NCBI RefSeq assembly: GCF_018977255.1
Contig: NW_024704742.1
Span: 68,450,001-68,514,000 of the forward strand
DNA length: 64,000 nucleotides
Source: Callorhinchus milii
Taxonomy: Eukaryota
Reading direction: 5' to 3'
The notes under the pieces were generated by a model. That model saw only the letters and a program-made list of their open reading frames with translations, ran no database searches and was not told the origin of the DNA. Positions within the stretch are counted from its first letter, which is position 1. The number at the start of each line of letters is the position of its first letter. The position numbers and the translations under genes were made by a program. Shown piece after piece: positions 14,633-51,429 of this stretch.

Positions 14633-15145
14633 TTGTCTGCCCCTCACTGTCTGCCCCTCACTCACTCTGTGCCCCTCACTGTCTGCCCCTCACTCACTCT
14701 GTGCCCCTCACTGTCTGCCCCTCACTGTCTGCCCCTCACTCACTCTGTGCCCCTCACTGTCTGCCCCTCACTCACTCTGTGCCCCTCACTGTCTGCCCCT
14801 CACTGTCTGCCCCTCACTCACTCTGTGCCCCTCACTGTCTGCCCCTCACTCACTCTGTGCCCCTCACTGTCTGCCCCTCACTGTCTGCCCCTCACTCACT
14901 CTGTGCCCCTCACTGTCTGCCCCTCACTCACTCTGTGCCTCTCACTGTCTGCCCCTCACTCACTCTGTGCCCCTCACTGTCTGCCCCTCACTGTCTGCCC
15001 CTCACTCACTCTGTGCCCCTCACTGTCTGCCCCTCACTCACTCTGTGCCCCTCACTGCCTGCCCCTCACTGTCTGCCCCTCACTCACTCTGTGCCCCTCA
15101 CTGTCTGCCCCTCACTCACTCTGTGCCCCTCACTGTCTACCCCTC
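14633..15145. repeat. Minisatellite of 14-bp (cccctcactgtctg) and 18-bp (cccctcactcactctgtg) subunits
   Basis: Directly visible tandem units. Confidence 0.95.
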
Positions 15146-16490
15146 ACTCTCTCCCCCAGGATCACTGTCTACCCCTCACTCTCTCCCTCAGGATCACTGT
15201 CTACCCCTCACCCTCTCCCCCAGGATCACTGTCTGACCCTCACCCTCTCCCCAGGATCACTGTCTGACCCTCACCCTCTCCCCCAGGATCACTGTCTGAC
15301 CCTCACCCTCTCCCCCAGGATCACTGTCTGACCCTCACCCTCTCCCCCAGGATCACTGTCTACCCCTCACTCTCTCCCCCAGGATCACTGTCTGACCCTC
15401 ACCCTCTCCCCAGGATCACTGTCTGACCCTCACCCTCTCCCCCAGGATCACTGTCTGACCCTCACCCTCTCCCCCAGGATCACTGTCTACCCCTCACTCT
15501 CTCCCCCAGGATCACTGTCTGACCCTCACCCTCTCCCCCAGGATCACTGTCTGACCCTCACCCTCTCCCCCAGGATCACTGTCTGACCCTCACCCTCTCC
15601 CCCAGGATCACTGTCTGACCCTCACTCTCCCCCAGGATCACTGTCTACCCCTCACTCTCTCCCCCAGGATCACTGTCTGACTCTCACCCTCTCCCCCAGG
15701 ATCACTGTCTGACCCTCACCCTCTCCCCCAGGATCACTGTCTGACCCTCACCCTCTCCCCCAGGATCACTGTCTGACCCTCAGCCTCTCCCCCAGGATCA
15801 GTGTCTGACCCTCACCCTCTCCCCCAGGATCACTGTCTGACCCTCACCCTCTCCCCCAGGATCACTGTCTGACCCTCACCCTCTCCTCCAGGATCACTGT
15901 CTGACCCTCACCCTCTCCCCCAGGATCACTGTCTGACCCTCACCCTCTCCCCCAGGATCACTGTCTGACCCTCAGCCTCTCCCCCAGGATCACTGTCTGA
16001 CCCTCACCCTCTCCCCCAGGATCACTGTCTGACCCTCACCCTCTCCCCCAGGATCACTGTCTGACCCTCACCCTCTCCCCCAGGATCACTGTCTGACCCT
16101 CACCCTCTCCCCCAGGATCACTGTCTGACCCTCACCCTCTCCCCCAGGATCACTGTCTGACCCTCCCCCTCTCCCCCAGGATCACTGTCTGACCCTCCCC
16201 CTCTCCCTCAGGATCACTGTCTGACCCTCCCCCTCTCCCCCAGGATCACTGTCTGACCCTCACCCTCTCCCCCAGGATCACTGTCTGACCCTCACCCTCT
16301 CCCCCAGGATCACTGTCTGACCCTCCCCCTCTCCCCCAGGATCACTGTCTGACCCTCACCCTCTCCCCCAGGATCAGTCTGACCCTCACCCTCTCCCTCA
16401 GGATCACTGTCTGACCCTCACCCTCTCCCCCAGGATCACTGTCTGACCCTCACCCTCTCCCTCAGGATCACTGTCTACCCCTCACTGTCT
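15146..16490. repeat. 32-bp minisatellite (tcactgtctgaccctcaccctctcccccagga)n, about 40 copies
   Basis: Period of 32 (for example ggatc at 15541 and 15573). Confidence 0.97.
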
Positions 16491-16632
16491 GTCTCAGTAA
16501 CTGTAGTGCCTCACGCGCTGCGCGGTGTGTGGTGTATGTGTGTTTGTGCGCACGCGCCGCGCGAGCTCTGAATTCTGTGCCCAACGGTTTGTCGGACTGT
16601 GGCGCTCCGCCATCTTCAACCGCCGCAGCCTG
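16490..16632 (-). promoter_or_regulatory. Core promoter / TSS-like CpG patch between two tandem arrays
   Basis: The minus strand reads GGTTGAAGATGGCGGAG (YY1-type AAGATGGCGG). An NRF1-like GTGCGCACGCGC is present and CpG density is high. Confidence 0.6.
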
Positions 16633-17508
16633 AGCTGTGCTGTGAGGGGCTGTGCTGTGAGGGGCTGAGCTGTGAGGAGCTGTGCTGTGAGGGGCTGAGC
16701 TGTGCTGTGAGGGGCTGAGCTGTGCTGTGAGGGGCTAAACTGTGCTGTGAGGGGCTAAACTGTGCTGTGAGGGGCTAAGCTGTGCTGTGAGGGGCTAAGC
16801 TGTGCTGTGCTGTGAGGGGCTGAGCTGTGCTGTGAGGGGCTGAGCTGTGCTGTGAGGGGCTGAGCTGTGCTGTGAGGGGCTGTGCTGTGCTGTGAGGGGC
16901 TGAGCTGTGCTGTGAGGGGCTGAGCTGTGCTGTGAGGGGCTGAGCTGTGCTGTGAGGGGCTAAGCTGTGCTGTGAGGGGCTAAGCTGTGCTGTGCTGTGA
17001 GGGGCTGAGCTGTGCTGTGAGGGGCTGAGCTGTGAGGTGCTGTGCTGTCCGGTGAGGTGCTGAGCTGTGCTGTGAGGTGCTGAGCTGTGCTGTGCTGTGA
17101 GGGGCTGAGCTGTGAGGTGCTGTGCTGTGAGGTGCTGAGCTGTCCGGTGAGGTGCTGAGCTGTGCTGTGAGGTGCTGTGCTGTGAGGTGCTGAGCTGTGC
17201 GGGGCTGAGCTGTGCTGTGAGGTGCTGAGCTGTGCTGTGAGGTGCTGTGCTGTGAGGGGCTGAGCTGTGCTGTGAGGGGCTGAGCTGTGCTGTGAGGTGC
17301 TGAGCTGTGCTGTGAGGTGCTGAGCTGTGCTGTGAGGGGCTGTGCTGTGAGGTGCTGAGCTGTGCTGTGCTGTGAGGTGCTGAGCTGTGCTGTGAGGTGC
17401 TGAGCTGTGCTGTGAGGTGCTGAGCTGTGCTGTGAGGGGCTGTGCTGTGAGGTGCTGTGCTGTGAGGTGCTGAGCTTTGCTGTGCTGAGCTTTGCTGTGC
17501 TGAGCTGA
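16630..17508. repeat. Pentamer-based minisatellite, main unit 20 bp (ggggc/ggtgc-tgagc-tgtgc-tgtga)
   Basis: Directly visible 20-bp period with 5-bp indel variants. Confidence 0.97.
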
Positions 17509-31140: not shown

Positions 31141-34100
31141 CGGGGCGGGGCGGTGTGTTGTGTTGTGGGCGGTGTGTGGGCGGTGTGTTGGGGGCGGTGT
31201 GTGGGCGGTGTGTTGGGGGCGGTGTGTTGAGGGGCGGTGTGTTGGGGGCGGTGTGTTGGGGGCGGTGTGTTGGGGGGCGGTGTGTGGGCGGTGTGTTGGG
31301 GGCGGTGTGTTGGCGGTGTGTTGGCGGTGTGTTGGGGGGCGGTGTGTGGGCGGTGTGTGTTGGGGGCGGTGTGTTGGGGGGCGGTGTGTTGGGGACGGTG
31401 TGTGGGCGGTGTGTGTTGGGGGCGGTGTGTTGGGGGCGGTGTGTTGGGGGCGGTGTGTGGGCGGTGTGGTTGGGGCGGTGTGTGGGCGGTGTGTTGGGGG
31501 CGGTGTGTTGGGGGGCGGTGTGTTGGGGGCGGTGTGTGGGCGGTGTGTGGGCGGTGTGTGGGGGCGGTGTGTTGGCGGTGTGTTGGCTGTGTGTTAGCGG
31601 TGTGTTGGCGGTGTGTGTTGGGGGCGGTGTGTTGGGGGCGGTGTGTTGGGGACGGTGTGTGGGCGGTGTGTGTTGGGGGCGGTGTGTTGGGGGCGGTGTG
31701 TTGGGGGGCGGTGTGTTGTGGGCGGTGTGTGGGCGGTGTGTGGGCGGTGTGTTGGGGGCGGTGTGGTGTTGGGGGCGGTGTGTGGGCGGTGTGTGTTGGG
31801 GGCGGTGTGGTGGGCGGTGTGTTGGGGGCGGTGTGTGTCGGGGGCGGTGTGTGTTGGGGGCGGTCTGTTGGCGGTGTGTTGGGGGGCGGTGTGTGGGCGG
31901 TGTGTTGGGGGGCGGTGTGTGTTGTGGGCGGTGTGTGGGCGGTGTGTTGGGGGCGGTGTGTGGGCGGTGTGTTGGGGGCGGTGTGTGAGTGTGGGCGGTG
32001 TGTGGGCGGTGTGTTGGGGGGCGGTGTGTGGGCGGTGTGTTGGGGGGCGGTGTGTTGTGGGCGGTGTGTGGGCGGTGTGTTGGGGGACGGTGTGTGGGCG
32101 GTGTGTGTTGGGGGCGGTGTGTTGTGGGCGGTGTGTGGGCGGTGTGTTGGGGGCGGTGTGTGGGCGGTGTGTGTTGGGGGGCGGTGTGTTGGGGGCGATG
32201 TGTGGGCGGTGTGTTGGGGGCGGTGTGTGGGCGGTGTGTGTTGGGGGTGGTGTGTGTTGGGGGCGGTGTGTGTTGGGGGCGGTGTGTTGGCGGTGTGTTG
32301 GGGGGCGGTGTGTTGTGGGCGGTGTGTTGGGGGGCGGTGTGTTGGGGGGCGGTGTGTTGGGGGGGGTGTGTTGGGGGCGGTGTGTTGGGGGGCGGTGTGT
32401 TGGGGGGCGGTGTGTGGGCGGTGTGTGGGCGGTGTGTTGGGGGCGGTGTGTGTTGGGGGCGGTGTGTGTTGGGGGGCGGTGTGTTGGGGGCGGTGTGTTG
32501 GGGGGCGGTGTGTTGGGGGCGGTGTGTGGGCGGTGTGTTGGGGGGCGGTGTGTGTTGGGGGCGGTGTGTTGGGGGCGGTGTGTGTTGGGGGCGGTGTGTT
32601 GGGGGCGGTGTGTGTTGGGGGCGGTGTGTGTTGGGGGCGGTGTGTGTTGGGGGCGGTGTGTGTTGGGGGCGGTGTGTGTTGGGGGCGGTGTGTGGGCGGT
32701 GTGTGGGCGGTGTGTGGGCGGTGTGTGTTGGGGGCGGTGTGTGTTGGGGGCGGTGTGTGTTGGGGGCGGTGTGTGTTGGGGGTGGTGTGTGGGCGGTGTG
32801 TTGGCGGTGTGTTGTGGGCGGTGTGTGTTGGGGGCGGTGTGTGTTGGGGGCGGTGTGTGTTGTGGGCGGTGTGTGGGCGGTGTGTTGGGGGGCGGTGTGT
32901 TGTGGGCGGTGTGTGGGCGGTGTGTTGGGGGGCGGTGTGTGAGCGGTGTGTTGGCGGTGTGTGGGCGGTGTGTGGGCGGTGTGTTGGGGGCGGTGTGTTG
33001 GGGGGCGGTGTGTTGGGGGGCGGTGTGTTGGGGGGCGGTGTGTGGGCGGTGTGTTGGGGGCGGTGTGTGGGCGGTGTGTGGGCGGTGTGTGTTGGGGGCG
33101 GTGTGTGTTGGGGGCGGTGTGTGTTGGGGGCGGTGTGTTGGGGGCGGTGTGTGTTGGGGGCGGTGTGTGTTGGGGCGGTGTGTGGGCGGTGTGTGTTGGG
33201 GGCGGTGTGTGGGCGGTGTGTGTTGGGGGGCGGTGTGTGTTGGGGGCGGTGTGTGGGCGGTGTGTGTTGGGGGCGGTGTGTTGGGGGCGGTGTGTGGGCG
33301 GTGTGTTGGGGGGGCGGTGTGTGTTGGGGGCGGTGTGTGTTGGGCCGGTGTGTGTTGGGGGCGGTGTGTTGGGGGCGGTGTGTGTTGGGGGCGGTGTGTG
33401 TTGGGGGCGGTGTGTGTGGGGGCGGTGTGTTGGGGGCGGTGTGTGTTGGGGGCGGTGTGTGTTGGGGGCGGTGTGTTGGGGGCGGTGTGTTGGGGGCGGT
33501 GTGTTGGCGGTGTGTGTTGGGGGCGGTGTGTGTTGGGGGCGGTGTGTTGGGGGCGGTGGTTGTGTTGGGGGCGGGTGGTTGGGGGCGGTGTGTTGGGGGC
33601 GGTGTGTGTTGGGGGCGGTGTGTGGGCGGTGTGTTGGGGGCGGTGGTGTGTTGGGGGCGGTGTGTGTTGGGGGCGGTGTGTGTTGGGGGCGGTGTGTGGG
33701 GGCGGTGTGTGTGGGGGCGGTGTGTGTGGGGGCGGTGTGTGTGGGGGCGGTGTGTGTTGGGGGCGGTGTGTGTTGGGGGCGGTGTGTGTTGGGGGCGGTG
33801 TGTGGGCGGTGTGTGTTGGGGGCGGTGTGTGGGCGGTGTGTTGGCGGTGTGTGTTGGGGGCGGTGTGTGTTGGGGGCGGTGTGTTGGGGGGCGGTGTGTG
33901 TTGGGGGGCGGTGTGTGGGCGGTGTGTTGGCGGTGTGTGTTGTGGGCGGTGTGTGTTGGGGGGTGTGTGGGCGGTGTGTTGGCGGTGTGTTGGGGGCGGT
34001 GTGTTGTGGGCGGTGTGTGTTGGGGGCGGTGTGTGTTGTGGGCGGTGGTGTTGGGGGCGGTGTGTGTTGGGGGCGGTGTGTGTTGTGGGCGGTGTGTTGT

Positions 34101-34592
34101 GGGCGGTGTGTTGGGGGCGGTGTGTGTTGGGGGCGGTGTGTGTTGTGGGCGGTGTGTTGGGGGGCGGTGTGTGGGCGGTGTGTGTGGGGGCGGGGCTGTG
34201 TGTGGGGGGGCGGGGCTGTGTGTGGGGGGCGGGGCTATGTGTGGGGGGCGGGGCTATGTGGGGGGGGGGGGGCGGGGCTGTGTGTGTGGGGGCGGGGCTG
34301 TGTGTGGGGGGCGGGGCTGTGTGTGTGTGGGGGGCGGGGCTGTGTGTGGGGGCGGGGCTGTGTGTGGGGCGGGCTGTGTGTGTGGGGGCGGGGTGTGTGG
34401 GGGGCGATGTGTGTGGGGGGCGGGGCTGTGTGGGGGGCGGGGCTGTGTGGGGGGGGCGGGGCTGTGTGTGTGGTGGGCGGGGCTATGTGGAGGGCGGGGC
34501 TATGCGTGGGGGGCGGGGCTGTATGTGGGGGCGGGGCTATGTGTGGGGGCGGGGCTATGTGTGGGGGCGGGGCTATGTGGGGGGGCGGGGAG
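31141..34592. repeat. About 3.45-kb G/T-rich tandem array (gggggcggtgtgtt variants, grading to gggggcggggctgtgt)
   Basis: Directly visible; almost no A on the + strand. Confidence 0.97.
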
Positions 34593-41749: not shown

Positions 41750-41866
41750 ATGACGTATGTGAGTGACAAGCTATATAAGTACATCAGGAATCGTCAGCCA
41801 GACTTCTTAAAGATTAATGCAGTGGAACTATTGCCACATCTTCCATGCCTCACGCAGATGGATTTG
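41750..41866 (+). CDS. MAVS: MAVS coding exon 1 (CARD N-terminus)
   Basis: Acceptor tttcttttgtgtttcag at 41731, ATG at 41750, donor TTG|gtaatt (phase 0). Translates to MTYVSDKLYKYIRNRQPDFLKINAVELLPHLPCLTQMDL (39 aa), which aligns with human [39 protein letters not shown]. Confidence 0.95.
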
Positions 41867-43286: not shown

Positions 43287-43464
43287 GAAACAACAAACGC
43301 ATGTGCCAGAAATGACGGCAACGAGAGGGCTGTACCTCATTTATTGGACTGTTGTAAACGCCGCAAAGGCTGGGAAATGCAATTGATACAGGCGCTGGAG
43401 AAAAAGGAGTACACTGATCTCGCGAGTGATCTGAAGCAGGAATTTCAGTCTCTGACCAGCGGAG
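43287..43464 (+). CDS. MAVS: MAVS coding exon 2 (remainder of CARD)
   Basis: Acceptor cctag|GAA. Translates to ETTNACARNDGNERAVPHLLDCCKRRKGWEMQLIQALEKKEYTDLASDLKQEFQSLTSG, with the MAVS CARD GN...LL...RRxGW...I.AL pattern. Ends at the GC donor GAG|gcaagt (phase 1). Confidence 0.92.
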
Positions 43465-44380
43465 GCAAGTACTAGCGTTGACGTTGACTGATTTCATTTA
43501 TTTTATAATTTTTTTTACACAACTTTATTTGTCTGTCTGTCCGTCCGTCTGTCTATCTATATCGACTTCCTACCTACCTACCAACCAACCCGGGTTTAGT
43601 CGATTGGTGGATCACTTTCCAGGTGTAAAAAAACTCTTCAAATAAATAAGAAAATTTTGGTCACTCAATCCACGATTGTTTATGGGACACTGCTTTGGCA
43701 ATTGGCTGCTGCATTTCGCTCACGATATATAGTCATTTCCCATTACAATATACTCTGTGAAGTGCTTTGAGACATCTTAATGATGTGATAAGGCGCGATA
43801 TCAAATTCAAGAATTTTTATATTATTAACCAACCAATCAATCAATTATATGTTTTGGTCAACCAAGTGTCCGACATACAAGGAAACACGTCAGTATACTT
43901 AATAGTATCCAAACTTAGAAACATAGATACTTTCTGTACAGAGAGGACCAGGTATGATATTTGTTAGGTTAGGGTATCAAGGGATAGATGTTTGTTAGGT
44001 AAGGATATTAAAGGATAGGGGCAAGGGCGGGTATTGGAATTGAGGTGAAGGTCAGCCAGCGGTGATTCAGGCAGAATCTATATTAGTTTTCAAAAGGGAA
44101 CTCGTTAGATATCTAAAGGGAAATCAACATGTTGGGAGATGGAGGGAAAGGGCAGGTAAATGGGACTGAAAGGATTGCTCTTTAAAAGAGCCAGTACAGA
44201 TACAATGGACCGAATGGCCTTATTCTGTGCTGTGAGTTTCTATTGGCTTTATCTTGGGCACCAGAGTGTGATTGTAAAAAAGAATGGTACTTCATTAGTA
44301 TTTCAGTCGATGTTTTTTCATTCGAAATTGGGAGTAGCTGACAAAAAAGGTACTCACTTACTCACTCAGTCATTCATCTT

Positions 44381-44688: not shown

Positions 44689-44811
44689 AAATTACAAAAC
44701 TTCTTCATTCGCTGTGTTTATTTGACTGAATGAGCAGCACAGACTAAAGCATTAGAATTCTGCTGTTAAGAAATGATTGTGAAATGAATTAATTTTCTTC
44801 TCTTTTTTCAG

Positions 44812-45380
44812 GTTCTGGAATAACGGGTTCACAGTGGCCCCCCAGTGGTTCCCCTAAGGCTAACCCTTCAGCCCCGGCCACCTCGGCCCATCACAGCCCC
44901 TTCCCTTCTCCACCTCCCACCTCCTCCCCGGCCAACGCACCTCATTCATCTGCCTCGGCTCTTCCTTCCCCAAAGGCATCTGTGCCTGATTTCCCCTCCA
45001 ACCCAGTCGAGGTTGATCTCTCCATGTCACCAACCAATCCTCGATCTTCCTCTCCCACCTCCACACTTAGACCCTCCTCTCCCACCTCCACACCTAACTC
45101 CTTCTCCCCAGCACCTGTCCCTTCCTCCATCCCTCGCTCCTCCTCCTCATGCCCCTCACCCATTGCACCCTGTCAGGGTTCAGCCTACGCTAGCGATCTC
45201 CAGGCTTCGGAGGGCTCTTCAGCTCCTGCTCTGAAGGTTTCAACTGCAGAATCGGCTGAGCCTAGCGAGGTTAGCCCCAGCTCAGATCAGCTAAAAATAC
45301 CAATTCAAGAAATGGGAGATATGAAGAGCAAACCATCACTTTCCAGAACAGACAGAGAGACTCAGAAACAGCCCATACAG
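44812..45380 (+). CDS. MAVS: MAVS coding exon 3 (Pro/Ser-rich region with PIQE TRAF-type motif)
   Basis: Strong acceptor ttttcttctcttttttcag at 44811. The frame is open and phase-compatible with the preceding GC donor. PIQEM at 45300-45314 resembles human PVQET. Donor CAG|gtagtg (phase 0). Confidence 0.88.
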
Positions 45381-45499
45381 GTAGTGTTACAATTCTTAAA
45401 TAAGACTGCGCTCCTTTAACTTGCCGAGTTTTGGAGAATAGTCCTATGGGATTCAGGCTTGTCCGTTTTTTAAGCTTGTGCATTGCTGTTTGTATGGAT

Positions 45500-45760
45500 C
45501 TGTATCCAGCCAGACCTCTGTGGCTGTGGCAGAGAATTCCACACTTCCACTACTCTCTGTGTGAAAAGATTCATCCTAATCTCCATTCTGGACCTCCCAG
45601 TTATGATTTTAAAACTATGCCCTCTAGACCACTGAAGATATTTTATTTCCCTATCTATCCTATCTAACCCTCGCATCATCTTACATATCTCTAACATATC
45701 CTCTCTCAGCCTTCCGAGCTCCAAAGAAAAAGTCCCAGTCTATCTAACCTTACCCTAACT
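45500..45760 (-). mobile_element. CR1 3' fragment in a MAVS intron
   Basis: ORF 45470-45724: RLREDMLE...SRGHSFKI...FTQRVVEVWNSLP. Confidence 0.85.
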
Positions 45761-46397
45761 GATTGACAAATTATTATTATAAGGGAATATTCAGTGGAGT
45801 TCTGTAGATTAGTGGTGAGAGCACTCGCCTCGCAAGCGAGAGACCTGGGTTCCATTCAAGGCAGGGCGAAATGTTGGGCAAGTTTCCTTACTCCACATGC
45901 CTCTGTTTACCTAGCAGTAAGTTAATCGATGACTCACCCAGAGTTGAGTGCTCTAACCGCTATCTACAGTTCTCCAATACTATTAACATGAAATATCAAC
46001 ATTAAAATGAGGATCCCGTCTATGCCTGTTCAGGTGGACATTAAAAGATCTCGTGGCACTTCTCAAAAAGAGTGAATCCCCTCTACATTGCCTCAGCGTG
46101 TTTACATTTTTACTTTGTGAAAATCACTAAAAAAAATTACAACTTGTTATGGGCACAAGCGCCAACTCAGCCTCAAGGACATGCCACCTATCTACCCCCT
46201 TCCCCCCTCCTCCCAGAGGGTAGGCATTGTTAATGGTTCTTAAACAAATTAATCTGTGGTTTACTGTGTTGTGGAGCTGCCAACTTGGCTTAATTAGTAG
46301 TGTTATTGCCTCCGAGTCAGAAGGTTGTGGGATGAAGCCCCACATTAGGACTTTGAGCTCACAATTCAGACTGATACTCCGATGAAATGCTGAGGAT

Positions 46398-46752
46398 TAA
46401 CAACAACTTGCATTTATGTAGCACCCCTCATGCAGAGTAGTTCCCCAGAGCACTTTACAGTGGTGGAGCACAACCCCGAGCCAGGGGGATGGGGGGGTGA
46501 CCATAAGCACGGTCGAAGAGGAAGGTCTTCAGATGTGATCTGAAGATGGGAAAGGGGAAGGCAAGGCAGAGGGATTGAGGGAGAGCGTTCTGAGTAGCTG
46601 AGAGTGTGGCCACTGATGGTGGAACGGAGGGCATGAGGGACAGGTAGGAGGCCGGAGCCAGTCAAGTGGAGGCCATGGGTAGTAGATTGGGGAGTACGTA
46701 GGTCAGAGAGGTGGGGAGGTGCCAGGGTGAGAAGGGATTTGAAGATGAGTGT
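46398..46752 (-). mobile_element. L2-like 3' end nested in a SINE
   Basis: aacaacaacttgcatttat tail; SINE sequence on both sides. Confidence 0.75.
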
Positions 46753-47361
46753 GAGGAGCAGTGGAGATGCTGTGACATGTTAAACCAAGGTCCTACCTGC
46801 TTATTCAGTTTAACTTACTATTTAATAAGAGATGGGAGCTTCTGACTAACCATCCTCCAGGCAAAATGGTCATTCACTTCAATGGTTGTTTGTGGGACCT
46901 TGCTGAGGGCAAATTAGTGACTGAATCTATCTACAAACACACAGTCAGTGCTCTCAACAGCACTTACCTGTGAAACACTTAGAAAACGTTTAACATATGG
47001 GTGCTAATAAATAAATAAATCTTACATTTAACATAGCACCTTTCATGCGAGGAGGATGCCTCAAGCTGCTTCAGGATATCAAGTGTAATGACTGGTACTT
47101 TGTAGGCAAACACGACAGCCAATTTGCACATTGCACATCCATGAAGTGAATGACCAACTTTATTGGGAGGTTGTTGGTCAGGACATCGAGACCAACTCCC
47201 TTCTCTTTTAATGTCTATCTGAACAGACAAAGGGGGAACCTCGATTCAGCATCCCACGTTAATATCAAATGCAAATATTATTTATGTTATTTATGGTTGG
47301 ATGATTCCTTTGCTAATAGATCCAGCTCTAAACTGACCGTTTTATGTTTTCAAAATAAAAG

Positions 47362-48840
47362 AACATAATTATTTTCAACGAGCAGGACCCTGACAGTCGT
47401 CCTTCCCAGAACCCAAGGATACGAGCCACTGAGACAGAGGAAAACCTGGCGCCTGTGAAGCAGCAAGTTGCAGCAACCCTGGTAGCATCTTCTGAGCAAA
47501 GCACAGTCTCAAGCACAGTGCTAGTAAATTGTCATGTGTCTTCAGGTGCAATCTCAGAGCAGTCGGATGAGAACAGTTTTGATGAGAGCATTCAGAAACC
47601 AGGGGTGTTGCTGGATATTACTGATCAGCCAGATAACTGGGCTCCATCCACTGTGCTACCCTGTTCAATCAGGTTGAGCGAATTGATGATAAGTTCAAGT
47701 ACTTTTCAAGCTTCAGGAAGTGATGGCACTGCAGAGGTCTGTTCCAACGCTGACACCTGTACCAGTGGAGCCAGTCCTGCAGACAGCGATGGCAGTGAAA
47801 ATTCACTCAAGGAACAGAAACTCCAGGCTTTGCAAGGCTACCAGAACAATAATCTGGAACACAGCTTCCATGATGTGCACCAACCATTGCTTATACAGGA
47901 AAACTTTGATGCAGAGAAGAAACTACACAAGATGGGTGAAGGTCCAGTCACTGATGGGGAAGGTGTAAAGATTAAGTCAGGTTCTGAGTTTGAGTCTGAA
48001 CTGCTGTCTGTTCAGAGGAGCACAACTGAAGCTGCACAAGGTATCTCTGGACTGATCGGTACCCAGCCTGATCCTGAGATCAGTGATGGCAAGGGAGCCA
48101 TTTCCACACACAGCACTATGTCACTTGTTTCTACTGACCGTGGCTCAGAAGGAGTAGGTCAAATGATACAAGCTTCTGTCAGGGAGTCAGATGCACCAGT
48201 AATGCAGGTCTCCTGGAATGGAAATCCACAGGGTGTTTTAGACCAAGGACTGATCGCAAACAGGCGAGTTGCTTCAGAAAACACCTTCAATCACACCCCA
48301 GCCACCCAGCACGATGGCAAGGCATGCACTATTGCTCCCAGCAACATTTCTTATGATCTCAGTGGATCCAGCAGTGTGTCCCATGATGGAAACAGTCACA
48401 TAGCAGGCATTTCCAAGAGTGGTGCGCTTCTCTCTAACAGAAATGATGGGAGTAAGGTTCACCAAGTAGGACAAAAGGGAGATGAGTCATGCGATGCTGA
48501 CATCAGAGTTCACACTGGCCACATACACGAAGGAGCCTTTCGTAACAACGAGGCAGGTAGCGACCACAGATTTGCAGCAACACACTCGGTTGATCTGAAC
48601 ACAAGCAATTCTGGAGGAGGCTATGTTAACTCCTTGTCCGACGTACCCCAGCCAATCATCAACACATCTGGGCAGAATTCTGCTGTGCTCCCTTCAGCCT
48701 CGCAAGAATGGTTAACTGGCAAGCAGCCGGTAGAGTCCGATGAGGAACTACCTTGCTCAAATTCCATGATGCGTTCAGTGACCATTGTTGCCCTGGTGGC
48801 AGTCGTCATCGGGTGTCTGTGGAAATATTGTCGCAAGTAG
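47362..48840 (+). CDS. MAVS: MAVS terminal coding exon (KPGVL, pLxIS-like ELMIS, C-terminal TM tail anchor)
   Basis: Contains ORF 47455-48840, KPGVL at 47596-47610 and ELMIS at 47680-47694. Ends SVTIVALVAVVIGCLWKYCRK* (hydrophobic helix plus basic tail). Three in-frame acceptors are possible (exon start 47362, 47383 or 47386); a ctgac branch-like motif lies at about 47333. Confidence 0.92.
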   Translation, partial: NIIIFNEQDPDSRPSQNPRIRATETEENLAPVKQQVAATLVASSEQSTVSSTVLVNCHVSSGAISEQSDENSFDESIQKPGVLLDITDQPDNWAPSTVLPCSIRLSELMISSSTFQASGSDGTAEVCSNADTCTSGASPADSDGSENSLKEQKLQALQGYQNNNLEHSFHDVHQPLLIQENFDAEKKLHKMGEGPVTDGEGVKIKSGSEFESELLSVQRSTTEAAQGISGLIGTQPDPEISDGKGAISTHSTMSLVSTDRGSEGVGQMIQASVRESDAPVMQVSWNGNPQGVLDQGLIANRRVASENTFNHTPATQHDGKACTIAPSNISYDLSGSSSVSHDGNSHIAGISKSGALLSNRNDGSKVHQVGQKGDESCDADIRVHTGHIHEGAFRNNEAGSDHRFAATHSVDLNTSNSGGGYVNSLSDVPQPIINTSGQNSAVLPSASQEWLTGKQPVESDEELPCSNSMMRSVTIVALVAVVIGCLWKYCRK

Positions 48841-49121
48841 TGACTCGCGAGATTCAAGTCATGTTTCCACCTTGCCTTAGTCTGTTGAACCATATTGTCT
48901 TAAGATCTACCGAATTGTGGATCATTCTTAAGGTCAGTCATAATTTAAAGTTCACCCACAAAACACACAGTCACCGGACTTTACAGTATATCTTGTGAAA
49001 TGCTTTGAGACGTTCTTCCGACGTGAAAGGCAGGCACTACCATCAAATGTAAGAATTGTCATTATTGTTGGGAGCTGAGGCTTTTTTAAAGAATTATGGA
49101 AAACAGGATAAGAATTTAAGA

Positions 49122-49317
49122 CAAAAACAGAAGTCGCTGGGAACACTCAACATGACCCATCGTCAGAACTCATGAAGGGTCGAGTTCTGACAAAGGGTCG
49201 TGGACACGAAACGTTGACTCACTTTCCTTTCTCCAGATGCTGCCTAACTTGCTGAGTGCTCCCAACGACTTCTGTTTTTGTTTCAGATTTCCAACATCTG
49301 CAGTATTTTGTGTTTTG
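49122..49317 (+). mobile_element. Short palindromic Penelope-like-element-derived insert with a degenerate hammerhead motif
   Basis: Flanked by the 12-bp direct repeat AAGAATTTAAGA (49110-49121 and 49318-49329). Inverted arms at 49121-49152 and 49250-49281. CTGACAA-A-GGGTC-GTG-GACAC-GAAAC-GTT at 49187-49215. Confidence 0.7.
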
Positions 49318-49594
49318 AAGAATTTAAGAGTTTCCCACAATTCTGCACAATCTTTAATTTTAAGACAAATGATCTCAAGGAGTAAGACAAGTTGAATTTG
49401 GGGCTTTTTTTCTTTAGAAATCATGAATGTTGACAGTTTAAACAGTAGTGATTTAGATTTTGCAATAGTTATTATAAAGCTTTGGTGAATGATTTAATAC
49501 TGTTGGAAAAAAAACTCTGAAATATGCAATAGAGCATTAGAGTCATTCTGTGCTAACTTATGATTTTTTTGCAAATCTATCAGTGGGTTATTTG

Positions 49595-49975
49595 TGTATC
49601 AGTTTGGCACAGTGGTAGCACTGTCACCTCTGAGCCAGAAAATTGTGTTCAAGCCTCATGTCACGACTTGGAATCGCATAGTTTAAGATGACACTTCAAT
49701 GCAGTGCTGGGGGAGGTGTTGCATTCGCGGAGATGCCGTCCTTTAGATAAGAAGTTTAACTGAGGTCCCACCTGCCTGTTCAGTTGAACATTAAAAATCC
49801 CATGGCACTATTTGAAAAGAGAAGGGACTTTCTCCCAATGTCCTGGCCAACAACCCCCTAAATAAAATTGGTCACTCACTCCATGACTGTTTGTGGGACA
49901 CTGCTATGCATAACTGGCTTCTGCGTTTCACTCACAAAATACACGGTCATTGCACTTTACAGTATATAAATCCTA
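49595..49975 (+). mobile_element. Deu-domain-type SINE downstream of the MAVS stop
   Basis: Contains cccatggcactatttgaa...tgtcctggccaac...ctgtttgtgggac...ttggct, the DeuSINE (SacSINE1/AmnSINE1-like) core as recalled. Further copies at about 2760-2990, 4310-4570 (-), 37610-38050 and 42415-42640. Confidence 0.7.
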
Positions 49976-51429
49976 ATAATAATACTTAAATTTGGTATAG
50001 TTCCTTATCACATCTTTAAGACATCTCAAAGTGCGTCACAGAATATACTGTAAAGTGAATTGACTGTATATTTTGTGGGAGCTATATCCTGAAGCGTTTT
50101 GATACCTCTCAATGAATTGAAAGTCACTATATCAAATGCAAGAATTATTATTATTATGATTATTCTTCACGTTGTTGGAGGAGCTCTAGATGTAAACAGG
50201 CAGATCAGTCCATTTCAGTTTGGTCGATCGAATTTAACTACTCTAGTTGGTAGGATGGTCCTAGTTGGTCGAGCAGCAAGAAACCATGCCAGACATTGTA
50301 TTGAATGGCAAGACACGTGGTTTTAGCTGGTTCGACTCCAGCAGTACCCCAATGCACACACTGGGGTTCCCAAGCGTTGGCTTTTGCCACCCCTCCCGAA
50401 TCCAACCCCAAGTTCCGGTGTGATCCCTCAACTGCCCAGGGCCTTGGGAATTCTTCTGACTTGAAAGTTAGTATATAAATATAAATGCAATGTTTTGTTA
50501 AGTATGGTGATTGGGTTTGCACAGTGTCAGACACCTGGCTAACCCAAAAAACACTCTTAAGAACAAAGGAGACAGAGGAGGCAATTTTCACTTCGGGTAA
50601 AGGGTAATCAAAATATTAAAATTTCCCAGTGTGAGCAGTTTCAAGAGAGAAAATTCATGTTCTCCCCAACCGATTTTGGTAAGGTAGCCCCCGAGAAAGC
50701 CGGTGGGTGTGGGTGGGTATGGGGGAGGGAGTGCAAGGCTTCACCCTTCCTCGGTAGATCTGAAAATAAGTGTGCAGAAAATAATACAGGTTAGAAGCTC
50801 CTCTAGGAGTGAGAATTTCTGAAAATACTCACTTGGGTGAATAAAAATGGTGCTTATCAGCTCTGAAAGGAACATTTGATTTTCCAGGAGGGGAACAGTG
50901 CTGTTCATAGCAAAGTAACACAACACAGACTTTACCCCATTGCTCCCTTTTTTTTGTATGGTAGAATGTACTCTTATCCATCTTATCAGTTCCCCTCTTT
51001 ATCTTAAATTATTTTAAGATTATCCCCTAATTTCCTCAACTCCAGGGAATATAACTTGAGCCTCCCATCAGAGCAAAGCCCCTTCATCCCATGTATTAAG
51101 CTGGTGAATTGTCACTGAGCACCCTCTTAAATATAACATATAATATAAATATATATAAATATATAATATATCCTTCCAAAACTGAACACAGTACTCGCAA
51201 TACTCACCGTACTCTGTTCTATCTCCTTTTATATTTCAGACTCCTTGTTATTAAAGCTCAGAATCCCACAAGCTGATTTGATTGCTTTCTGTACCTGTGA
51301 ACTAGCTTTTAACAAATTATGTATTTCGACATCTTAATTCCTCCATTGATATACATGTGCAGTGCCCTAATGCTGCAGTGATGAGAACTGTATGAGGTAC
51401 TCTGGTTGTGGTCTGATTAAATCACTTTA

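Follow-up and report, generated by a model that had tools for sequence, protein, structure and literature searches.

A decayed pair of Penelope-like element ends with a probably inactive hammerhead motif in the MAVS 3' UTR of Callorhinchus milii

A sequence resembling a hammerhead ribozyme lies in sense orientation downstream of the MAVS stop codon in Callorhinchus milii, which raises the question of whether an RNA that cuts itself is part of the mRNA for the RIG-I/MDA5 adaptor, and how such a motif arrived there. We examined the motif in a stretch of 64,000 nt (contig NW_024704742.1, positions 68,450,001 to 68,514,000; hereafter the window) and followed its repeat family through the genome. 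In our assessment, the insert that carries the motif is very probably a decayed head-to-head pair of Penelope-like element (PLE) ends in the MAVS 3' UTR, with a hammerhead that is likely inactive and has no role.

The gene upstream of the insert is MAVS, for which the following coding parts were recognized.

41750..41866, + strand: first coding exon of MAVS (N-terminal part of the CARD; 3' end approximate), from phmmer matches to MAVS CARD structures (E 5e-7)
43287..43472, + strand: open frame with the second MAVS CARD exon, from Pfam CARD_2 (E 4.8e-10) and MAVS chains (E 0.002)
47386..48840, + strand: coding part of the last MAVS exon with the stop codon TAG at 48838-48840, from a GT..AG junction and the open frame

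The reading frame is uninterrupted across the 45380/47386 join, a GT..AG junction found in RNA contigs from three of four runs, and the last coding exon terminates in a hydrophobic, anchor-like stretch followed by the TAG. At about 484 codons this is a long exon, and a Pfam search of 47386-48840 gave no match. Upstream of MAVS, long G/T- and C/T-rich minisatellite arrays with periods of 10-32 and higher multiples extend over 14634-17507 and 31149-34590.

The RNA evidence consists of assembled contigs, not raw reads, from 4 of 14 sequencing runs in two studies, and the RNA nature of the runs was deduced from the spliced junction, not from the record. One spliced contig from run X3 (record 8) spans 44810 to 49212 and thereby joins the coding exons to the hammerhead motif, which places the insert in the MAVS 3' UTR, as had been originally predicted. 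In X1 and X3 the contigs restart at 49288; RNA contigs extend over 49288-49853, and all four runs have contigs on parts of 50318-51000. The insert is spanned whole by none of the contigs, and the contig-free stretch at 49213-49287 carries no evidential weight. The stop at 49212 (49182+30) and the restart at 49288 (49318-30) both fall exactly 30 nt inside repeat boundaries; we infer that they fit the branching of 31-mer graphs at a repeat, cleavage being the less likely cause. Polyadenylation ahead of the insert, which would have kept the motif out of the mRNA, was not indicated either, as a sequence scan found no AATAAA or ATTAAA between the MAVS stop and 49790, the position of the first poly(A)-like hexamer; further ones lie at 49861, 50615 and 50840. 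The differences listed between the X1 and X3 contigs and the 3' UTR are mostly A>G (49685, 49913-49943 and 50763) and could be due to editing, alleles or misplaced repeat copies. Two contigs end right before an A, at 49117 and 49126, in or next to an arm of the hairpin described below.

The motif itself contains the following parts.

49182..49220, + strand: decayed minimal type I hammerhead, from the descriptor, folding and the layout in PMC4209133
49187..49193, + strand: hammerhead core, C3 to A9, with G8A at 49192; an extra A follows at 49194
49195..49199 and 49203..49207, + strand: stem II of the hammerhead, with a mismatch at 49206
49208..49211, + strand: GAAA of the hammerhead, with the ACGU palindrome at 49211-49214 and the predicted cut after U49215

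Both the sequence of 49182-49220 and its minimal type I layout are as first claimed. Our descriptor, which was written after the motif had been seen (stem I of at least 4 bp, CUGANGA with at most one mismatch, stem II, and GAAA-palindrome-UH), matched only this site on both strands of the window and nothing in 150 dinucleotide shuffles, a result that shows rarity, not function. Four pairs of the proposed stem I, GAGUU/GACUC, stand, but the fifth, G49182-C49220, is not ancestral: C occupies that position in 90% of 81 copies that retain the upstream sequence. Stem II, GGGUC/GACAC, had been counted as paired, and the G49196·A49206 mismatch was missed; the family has GACCC at this place. Core positions 3 and 8 form neither C3-G8 nor U3-A8, with C49187 opposite A49192 in the MAVS copy, and G10.1-C11.1 is preserved, as are GAAA and the ACGU palindrome. 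Rfam returned no hammerhead match at the MAVS copy, nor at an intact family copy, and because the intact copy was also unmatched, the blank is uninformative about the MAVS copy.

The surroundings of the motif consist of a 196-bp insert, 49122-49317, which lies between the perfect 12-bp direct repeats that the original prediction had given as its bounds.

49110..49121, + strand: left target-site duplication AAGAATTTAAGA, a perfect direct repeat
49122..49170, - strand: inverted partial copy of the element end, from BLAST to the family majority sequence
49171..49182, no strand: filler at the junction of the arms, containing TGAAGGGTC, 9 nt that derive from the Penelope-like element, from the sequence
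49183..49317, + strand: sense copy of the 137-nt element end (pLTR unit), 127/137 identical to the family majority
49281..49317, + strand: "tail" of about 36 nt, in the sense arm only, from comparison of the unit across copies (PLE tails are 30-40 bp in PMC8557442)
49318..49329, + strand: right target-site duplication AAGAATTTAAGA, a perfect direct repeat

Two pairs of inverted arms were found, 49113-49152/49250-49289 (40 nt, 85% identity) and 49151-49171/49182-49202 (21 nt, 86% identity). The inverted copy at 49122..49170 joins unit positions 1-20 to 70-100, with an internal deletion of about 50 nt; it retains CTGACGA, as had been noted for the minus strand, and has no GAAA, cut site or tail. 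The sense arm differs from the majority sequence by 2 CpG changes, 6 other changes and a 2-nt deletion, and fillers comparable to the one at the junction occur in three family loci (L009, L024 and L027). The layout is that of two head-to-head copies of the ribozyme-bearing 137-nt PLE end; the insert contains no ORF body.

The unit belongs to a dispersed repeat with 1256 exact matches to a 35-nt pattern in the 991.5-Mb genome, a number that is a lower bound since the pattern permits CpG decay only and does not include the MAVS copy; the reversed control gave 0. Fully intact 36-mers number 182, versus 39 with G8A, and among copies chosen by their 3' tail alone, position 8 is G in 58 of the 69 that are readable. 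Judged by these sequence counts, G8 is ancestral in the family, in agreement with the initial view that G8A arose by CpG decay. The majority sequence carries CUGACGA, GAAA and GUU, together with an extra A after A9, stem II as GGGUC/GACCC, the ACGU palindrome and a 4-bp helix I, AGUU/GACU, and so the genome-wide consensus, named beforehand as a check, speaks for a hammerhead family. CTGACAA was considered as the family majority and rejected, the loci in question having been chosen by likeness to the MAVS copy and being biased relative to the later counts.

The MAVS copy has 6 non-CpG changes (about 5%), and the family median is 4.3% in 56 arms, a figure lowered by the choice of part of the sample by the core pattern. 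It is an average copy, and because its divergence is like that of the average copy, nothing points to selection. Selection for inactivation in the UTR was also considered and found unsupported, with G8A alone present, by CpG decay, in 176 of the 1256 pattern copies (14%). The 94 stem II variants are nearly all uncompensated changes within one family, as expected of decaying copies, and since almost no compensatory change is seen, it is the descriptor and the position that support the structure, rather than covariation. Our literature search retrieved no report that describes a hammerhead in the MAVS 3' UTR or this family from cartilaginous fish. The family may already be listed in the supplements of PMC4209133 or in those of a 2026 preprint that covers one chondrichthyan and tabulates overlaps with 3' UTRs (bioRxiv 10.64898/2026.07.22.740005). 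Other minimal hammerheads, with an unrelated, well-paired stem II and a GUC triplet, are located on three small contigs (L173, C1023; L174, C345; L175, C1138) and represent either other PLE families or foreign DNA; the pattern that found them likewise gave 3 matches in its reversed control.

Could the MAVS copy still be active? The fold of the insert in its context has an energy of -80.5 kcal/mol (z -5.0), and within the transcript the hammerhead stems have a predicted pair probability of 0.0000. Forcing the hammerhead costs 13 kcal/mol, and 49182-49191 are predicted to pair with the left arm with a probability of at least 0.99. Folded as isolated segments of 39-46 nt, the MAVS copy and two intact copies all had z values of about 0, as expected of motifs without helix III. 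Restoring G8 alone would not be expected to free the core, because a G at this position would in context pair with C49161 and strengthen the hairpin, and stem II would still contain its mismatch. A second sense copy was not present in the window. Given A8 together with C3, the stem II mismatch, the predicted hairpin and the lack of a sense partner for a dimer, the hammerhead of the MAVS copy is likely inactive. The original prediction had ascribed inactivation to G8A and to pairing between the arms; the model of a core sequestered by the inverted arm is in line with this, but the lesion in stem II had been overlooked. In hammerheads, a natural A8 is described as accompanied by U3 (PMC4209133; PMC3088659), and a G8C mutation, which is not G8A, abolishes cleavage of a PLE hammerhead (PMC11167929); our literature search found no paper that tested G8A in a hammerhead. 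Minimal hammerheads, even when intact, are reported to cleave poorly or slowly and only as dimers (PMC4209133, PMC6765202), and a related PLE hammerhead cleaved only in the presence of the element's protein (PMC11167929).

Among the alternatives, the one that fares best, and that we still regard as improbable, is that the 40-bp fold-back, as a target of editing or binding by ADAR proteins, sets MAVS levels, so that the relic serves as a regulatory duplex in which the fold-back and two mutations block cutting. The 40-nt stem with 85% identity, the z of -5.0 and the location within the spliced transcript agree with this hypothesis, as do the prevalence of A>G among the X1/X3 differences and the contig ends before an A at 49126 and 49117. 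It would also have a parallel in the human MAVS 3' UTR, with its editing by ADAR1 and binding of ADAR3 (PMC9418441). However, the hairpin needs no selection, since 47 of 90 family copies have an inverted arm, and the divergence of the MAVS copy is average. Furthermore, the listed A>G sites are outside the insert, several of them in other repeats and without matched DNA, and an A-rich region makes a contig end before an A cheap. The 40-bp duplex that the insert adds to this innate-immune mRNA would be of consequence if editing took place there or if the output of MAVS depended on it, and if the hypothesis were true, a relic duplex in the RIG-I/MDA5 adaptor mRNA of a cartilaginous fish would converge on the edited MAVS 3' UTR of humans.

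We give even less credence to a residual, conditional activity, either in trans with family RNA or with the help of a protein, that would remove the poly(A) tail from MAVS mRNA in a manner similar to Clec2. The sense orientation, the position between the stop codon and the hexamer at 49790, the preserved G10.1-C11.1, GAAA and ACGU palindrome, and the protein assistance possible for a PLE hammerhead (PMC11167929) are all compatible with such activity. The X3 contig ends 3 nt short of the predicted cut site, at 49212, and the contig depth is lower downstream in two of the four runs (X1, 58 before versus 39/35 beyond the insert; X3, 36 versus 17/18) but not in X5 (15 versus 15), although contig depths cannot rank the parts of a gene, nor show RNA ends or levels. 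Against it are the C3·A8 mismatch, the mismatch in stem II, the predicted trapping in the hairpin and the absence of a second sense copy from the window, and even intact minimal hammerheads are described as cleaving poorly and as dimers only (PMC4209133). The contig ends fit repeat branching.

The parent element was traced through the longer copies. Upstream of the unit, these contain a disrupted ORF that includes a CX4CxxC motif and a segment resembling an endonuclease. The genome contains 943 candidates for this segment, of which 150 were scored. At 19 of 20 loci picked by the endonuclease, at least 50 nt of the unit follow downstream in the same sense, and the remaining locus (L100) has only 32 nt of the unit tail. 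One locus (L112) contains a 470-aa frame with the RT-like motifs GTRMGP and YIDD, then the unit, and an inverted unit upstream. Pfam gave no match for the L112 frame and for fragments from L017, one of the intact family copies, and domains were assigned through homologues. The L112 frame has 47% identity over 421 aa to P0020, which matches RVT_1 and GIY-YIG, and its best matches are shark and ray proteins (56-63%). The CX2-5CxxC linker is intact in 15 of 20 genomic copies and present in 52 of the 61 homologues with a recognizable endonuclease start among the 120 listed. A 913-aa open frame indicated for another locus (L111) was not found in the stretch of it that was examined. As judged from its homologues, the parent is an endonuclease-positive PLE with an RT, a CX4CxxC linker and a GIY-YIG-type endonuclease, so that the suggested Penelope-type origin is supported by an RT/endonuclease ORF upstream of the unit elsewhere in the genome. 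The linker motif, the sole basis for the clade, points to the Neptune/Nematis type. At about 57-137 of the unit (window 49237-49317), an ATG frame follows the ribozyme (MLPDLLS..., seen in L087), and the same stretch includes a pyrimidine-rich TTTCAG that resembles a splice acceptor. By analogy with the Anolis element, this frame is possibly the start of the element's ORF.

To map the ends of the copies, we used the first 90 of 332 tail-matched copies (L143-L172 and L176-L235). An adjacent inverted arm is present in the 47 tail-picked copies mentioned above, and many of these arms end near +95 to +110 and hence have no tail. Flanking repeats of at least 8 bp were seen in 16 of 33 two-arm copies, versus 11 of 1056 mismatched pairs. 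The MAVS insert shares this two-arm plan, with its tailless inverted arm, filler, tailed sense arm and 12-bp duplication. Inverted truncated copies and one-sided tails of 30-40 bp are described features of PLEs (PMC8557442), and in an Anolis PLE the tail corresponds to the stretch that separates two internal sites at which the RT starts (PMC11167929).

The 5' ends of the 90 copies are concentrated at -1..+5 (36 copies, peak at +2); 29 copies extend further upstream, 13 end at +6..+29, 2 near the predicted cut (+34) and 10 beyond it. The inverted arms have the same 5'-end peak as the short sense copies, at the 5' strand of stem I. This cluster at the edge of stem I is likely the RNA start, and we infer that the pile-up reflects the copying of uncleaved RNA back to that start. 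The sequence CCAGTTC at the pile-up fits the initiator consensus, YYANWYY. For Penelope, an internal promoter within the pLTR has been described (PMC2377424). A shared spliced leader was not found upstream of 147 short copies, and an extra G from cap copying was rejected as unconvincing, with G before AG in 12 of 60. It is very unlikely that the unit multiplied as a non-autonomous element in its own right, a palindromic MITE-like repeat or a tandem retrozyme, instead of as abortive PLE copies: the many short copies with a sharp common 5' end would suit it and hammerhead-bearing non-autonomous PLE derivatives have been described (bioRxiv 10.64898/2026.07.22.740005), but inner junctions and arm lengths vary by copy, which argues against a single palindromic master, 29 of the 90 copies reach upstream into the element body, the lengths of the target-site duplications vary, and the loci examined contained no tandem arrays of the unit.

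With abortive PLE copying as the preferred explanation, the insert could have formed as follows. The element protein would have made nicks staggered by 12 nt in AT-rich DNA, and uncleaved element RNA would have been copied twice, from internal start points at about +137 and about +100. Both rounds would have run back to the 5' terminus of the RNA, at the ribozyme's edge, leaving the sense arm with a tail and the inverted arm without one. Later, the left arm would have suffered its deletion, CpG decay would have produced G8A, and stem II would have acquired its C>A change. In the MAVS mRNA, the arms are predicted to form a long hairpin that hides the hammerhead core, and because of this the transcript would be read through and stay uncut.

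If so, the locus in itself matters little, being one decayed PLE end among more than 1200 copies, in a UTR. Placement in UTRs is already known for hammerhead-bearing PLE derivatives in Xenopus, where those overlapping exons tend to be in 3' UTRs (bioRxiv 10.64898/2026.07.22.740005). The family, on the other hand, provides a genome-scale hint on the role of PLE hammerheads, in that the inserts keep the whole ribozyme and begin at its 5' edge, which agrees with the in vitro finding of uncleaved RNA as template (PMC11167929).

Comparison with known systems places the insert among the PLEs. Non-LTR retrozymes are head-to-tail tandems, whereas the insert is head-to-head, with no tandem array at the site. 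The hammerhead in the 3' UTR of mammalian Clec2 is likewise located between the stop codon and the poly(A) signal (PMC6765202, PMC6155905), but that ribozyme is bipartite and active and reduces expression (PMC6765202), and the MAVS motif is a mutated minimal copy in transposon debris. In the Anolis Poseidon PLE PAc, two internal RT start sites define the tail, to which the family unit ends near +100 and +137 correspond; its targets are AT-rich and unprocessed RNA is the dominant template, with which the retained ribozyme in the MAVS insert agrees (PMC11167929). Unlike PAc, the family belongs to another clade by its linker motif, and activity has been demonstrated for PAc, that of the present family being putative. 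Neptune/Nematis PLEs share the RT followed by a C-terminal GIY-YIG-type domain, the CX2-5CxxC linker, the adjacent inverted 5'-truncated copy and the 30-40-bp tail at one end (PMC8557442), and they differ from the MAVS insert, which has no ORF body. The closest likeness is to the minimal PLE hammerheads described in PMC4209133, the abstract, results and discussion of which do not mention cartilaginous fish. Helix II is shorter here, at 5 bp, than in the Schistosoma families, which have 7-8 bp; GUU serves as the triplet, and the MAVS copy has the uncompensated G8A and the stem II mismatch. Common to both are the type I layout with no real helix III, the palindromic 15.2-16.2, the extra base between 9 and 10.1, G10.1-C11.1, a helix I of 4-5 bp, the pseudo-LTR location, mainly single dispersed copies and opposite-strand pairs. 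The MAVS motif resembles, and by the features compared descends from, the minimal hammerhead of PLEs.
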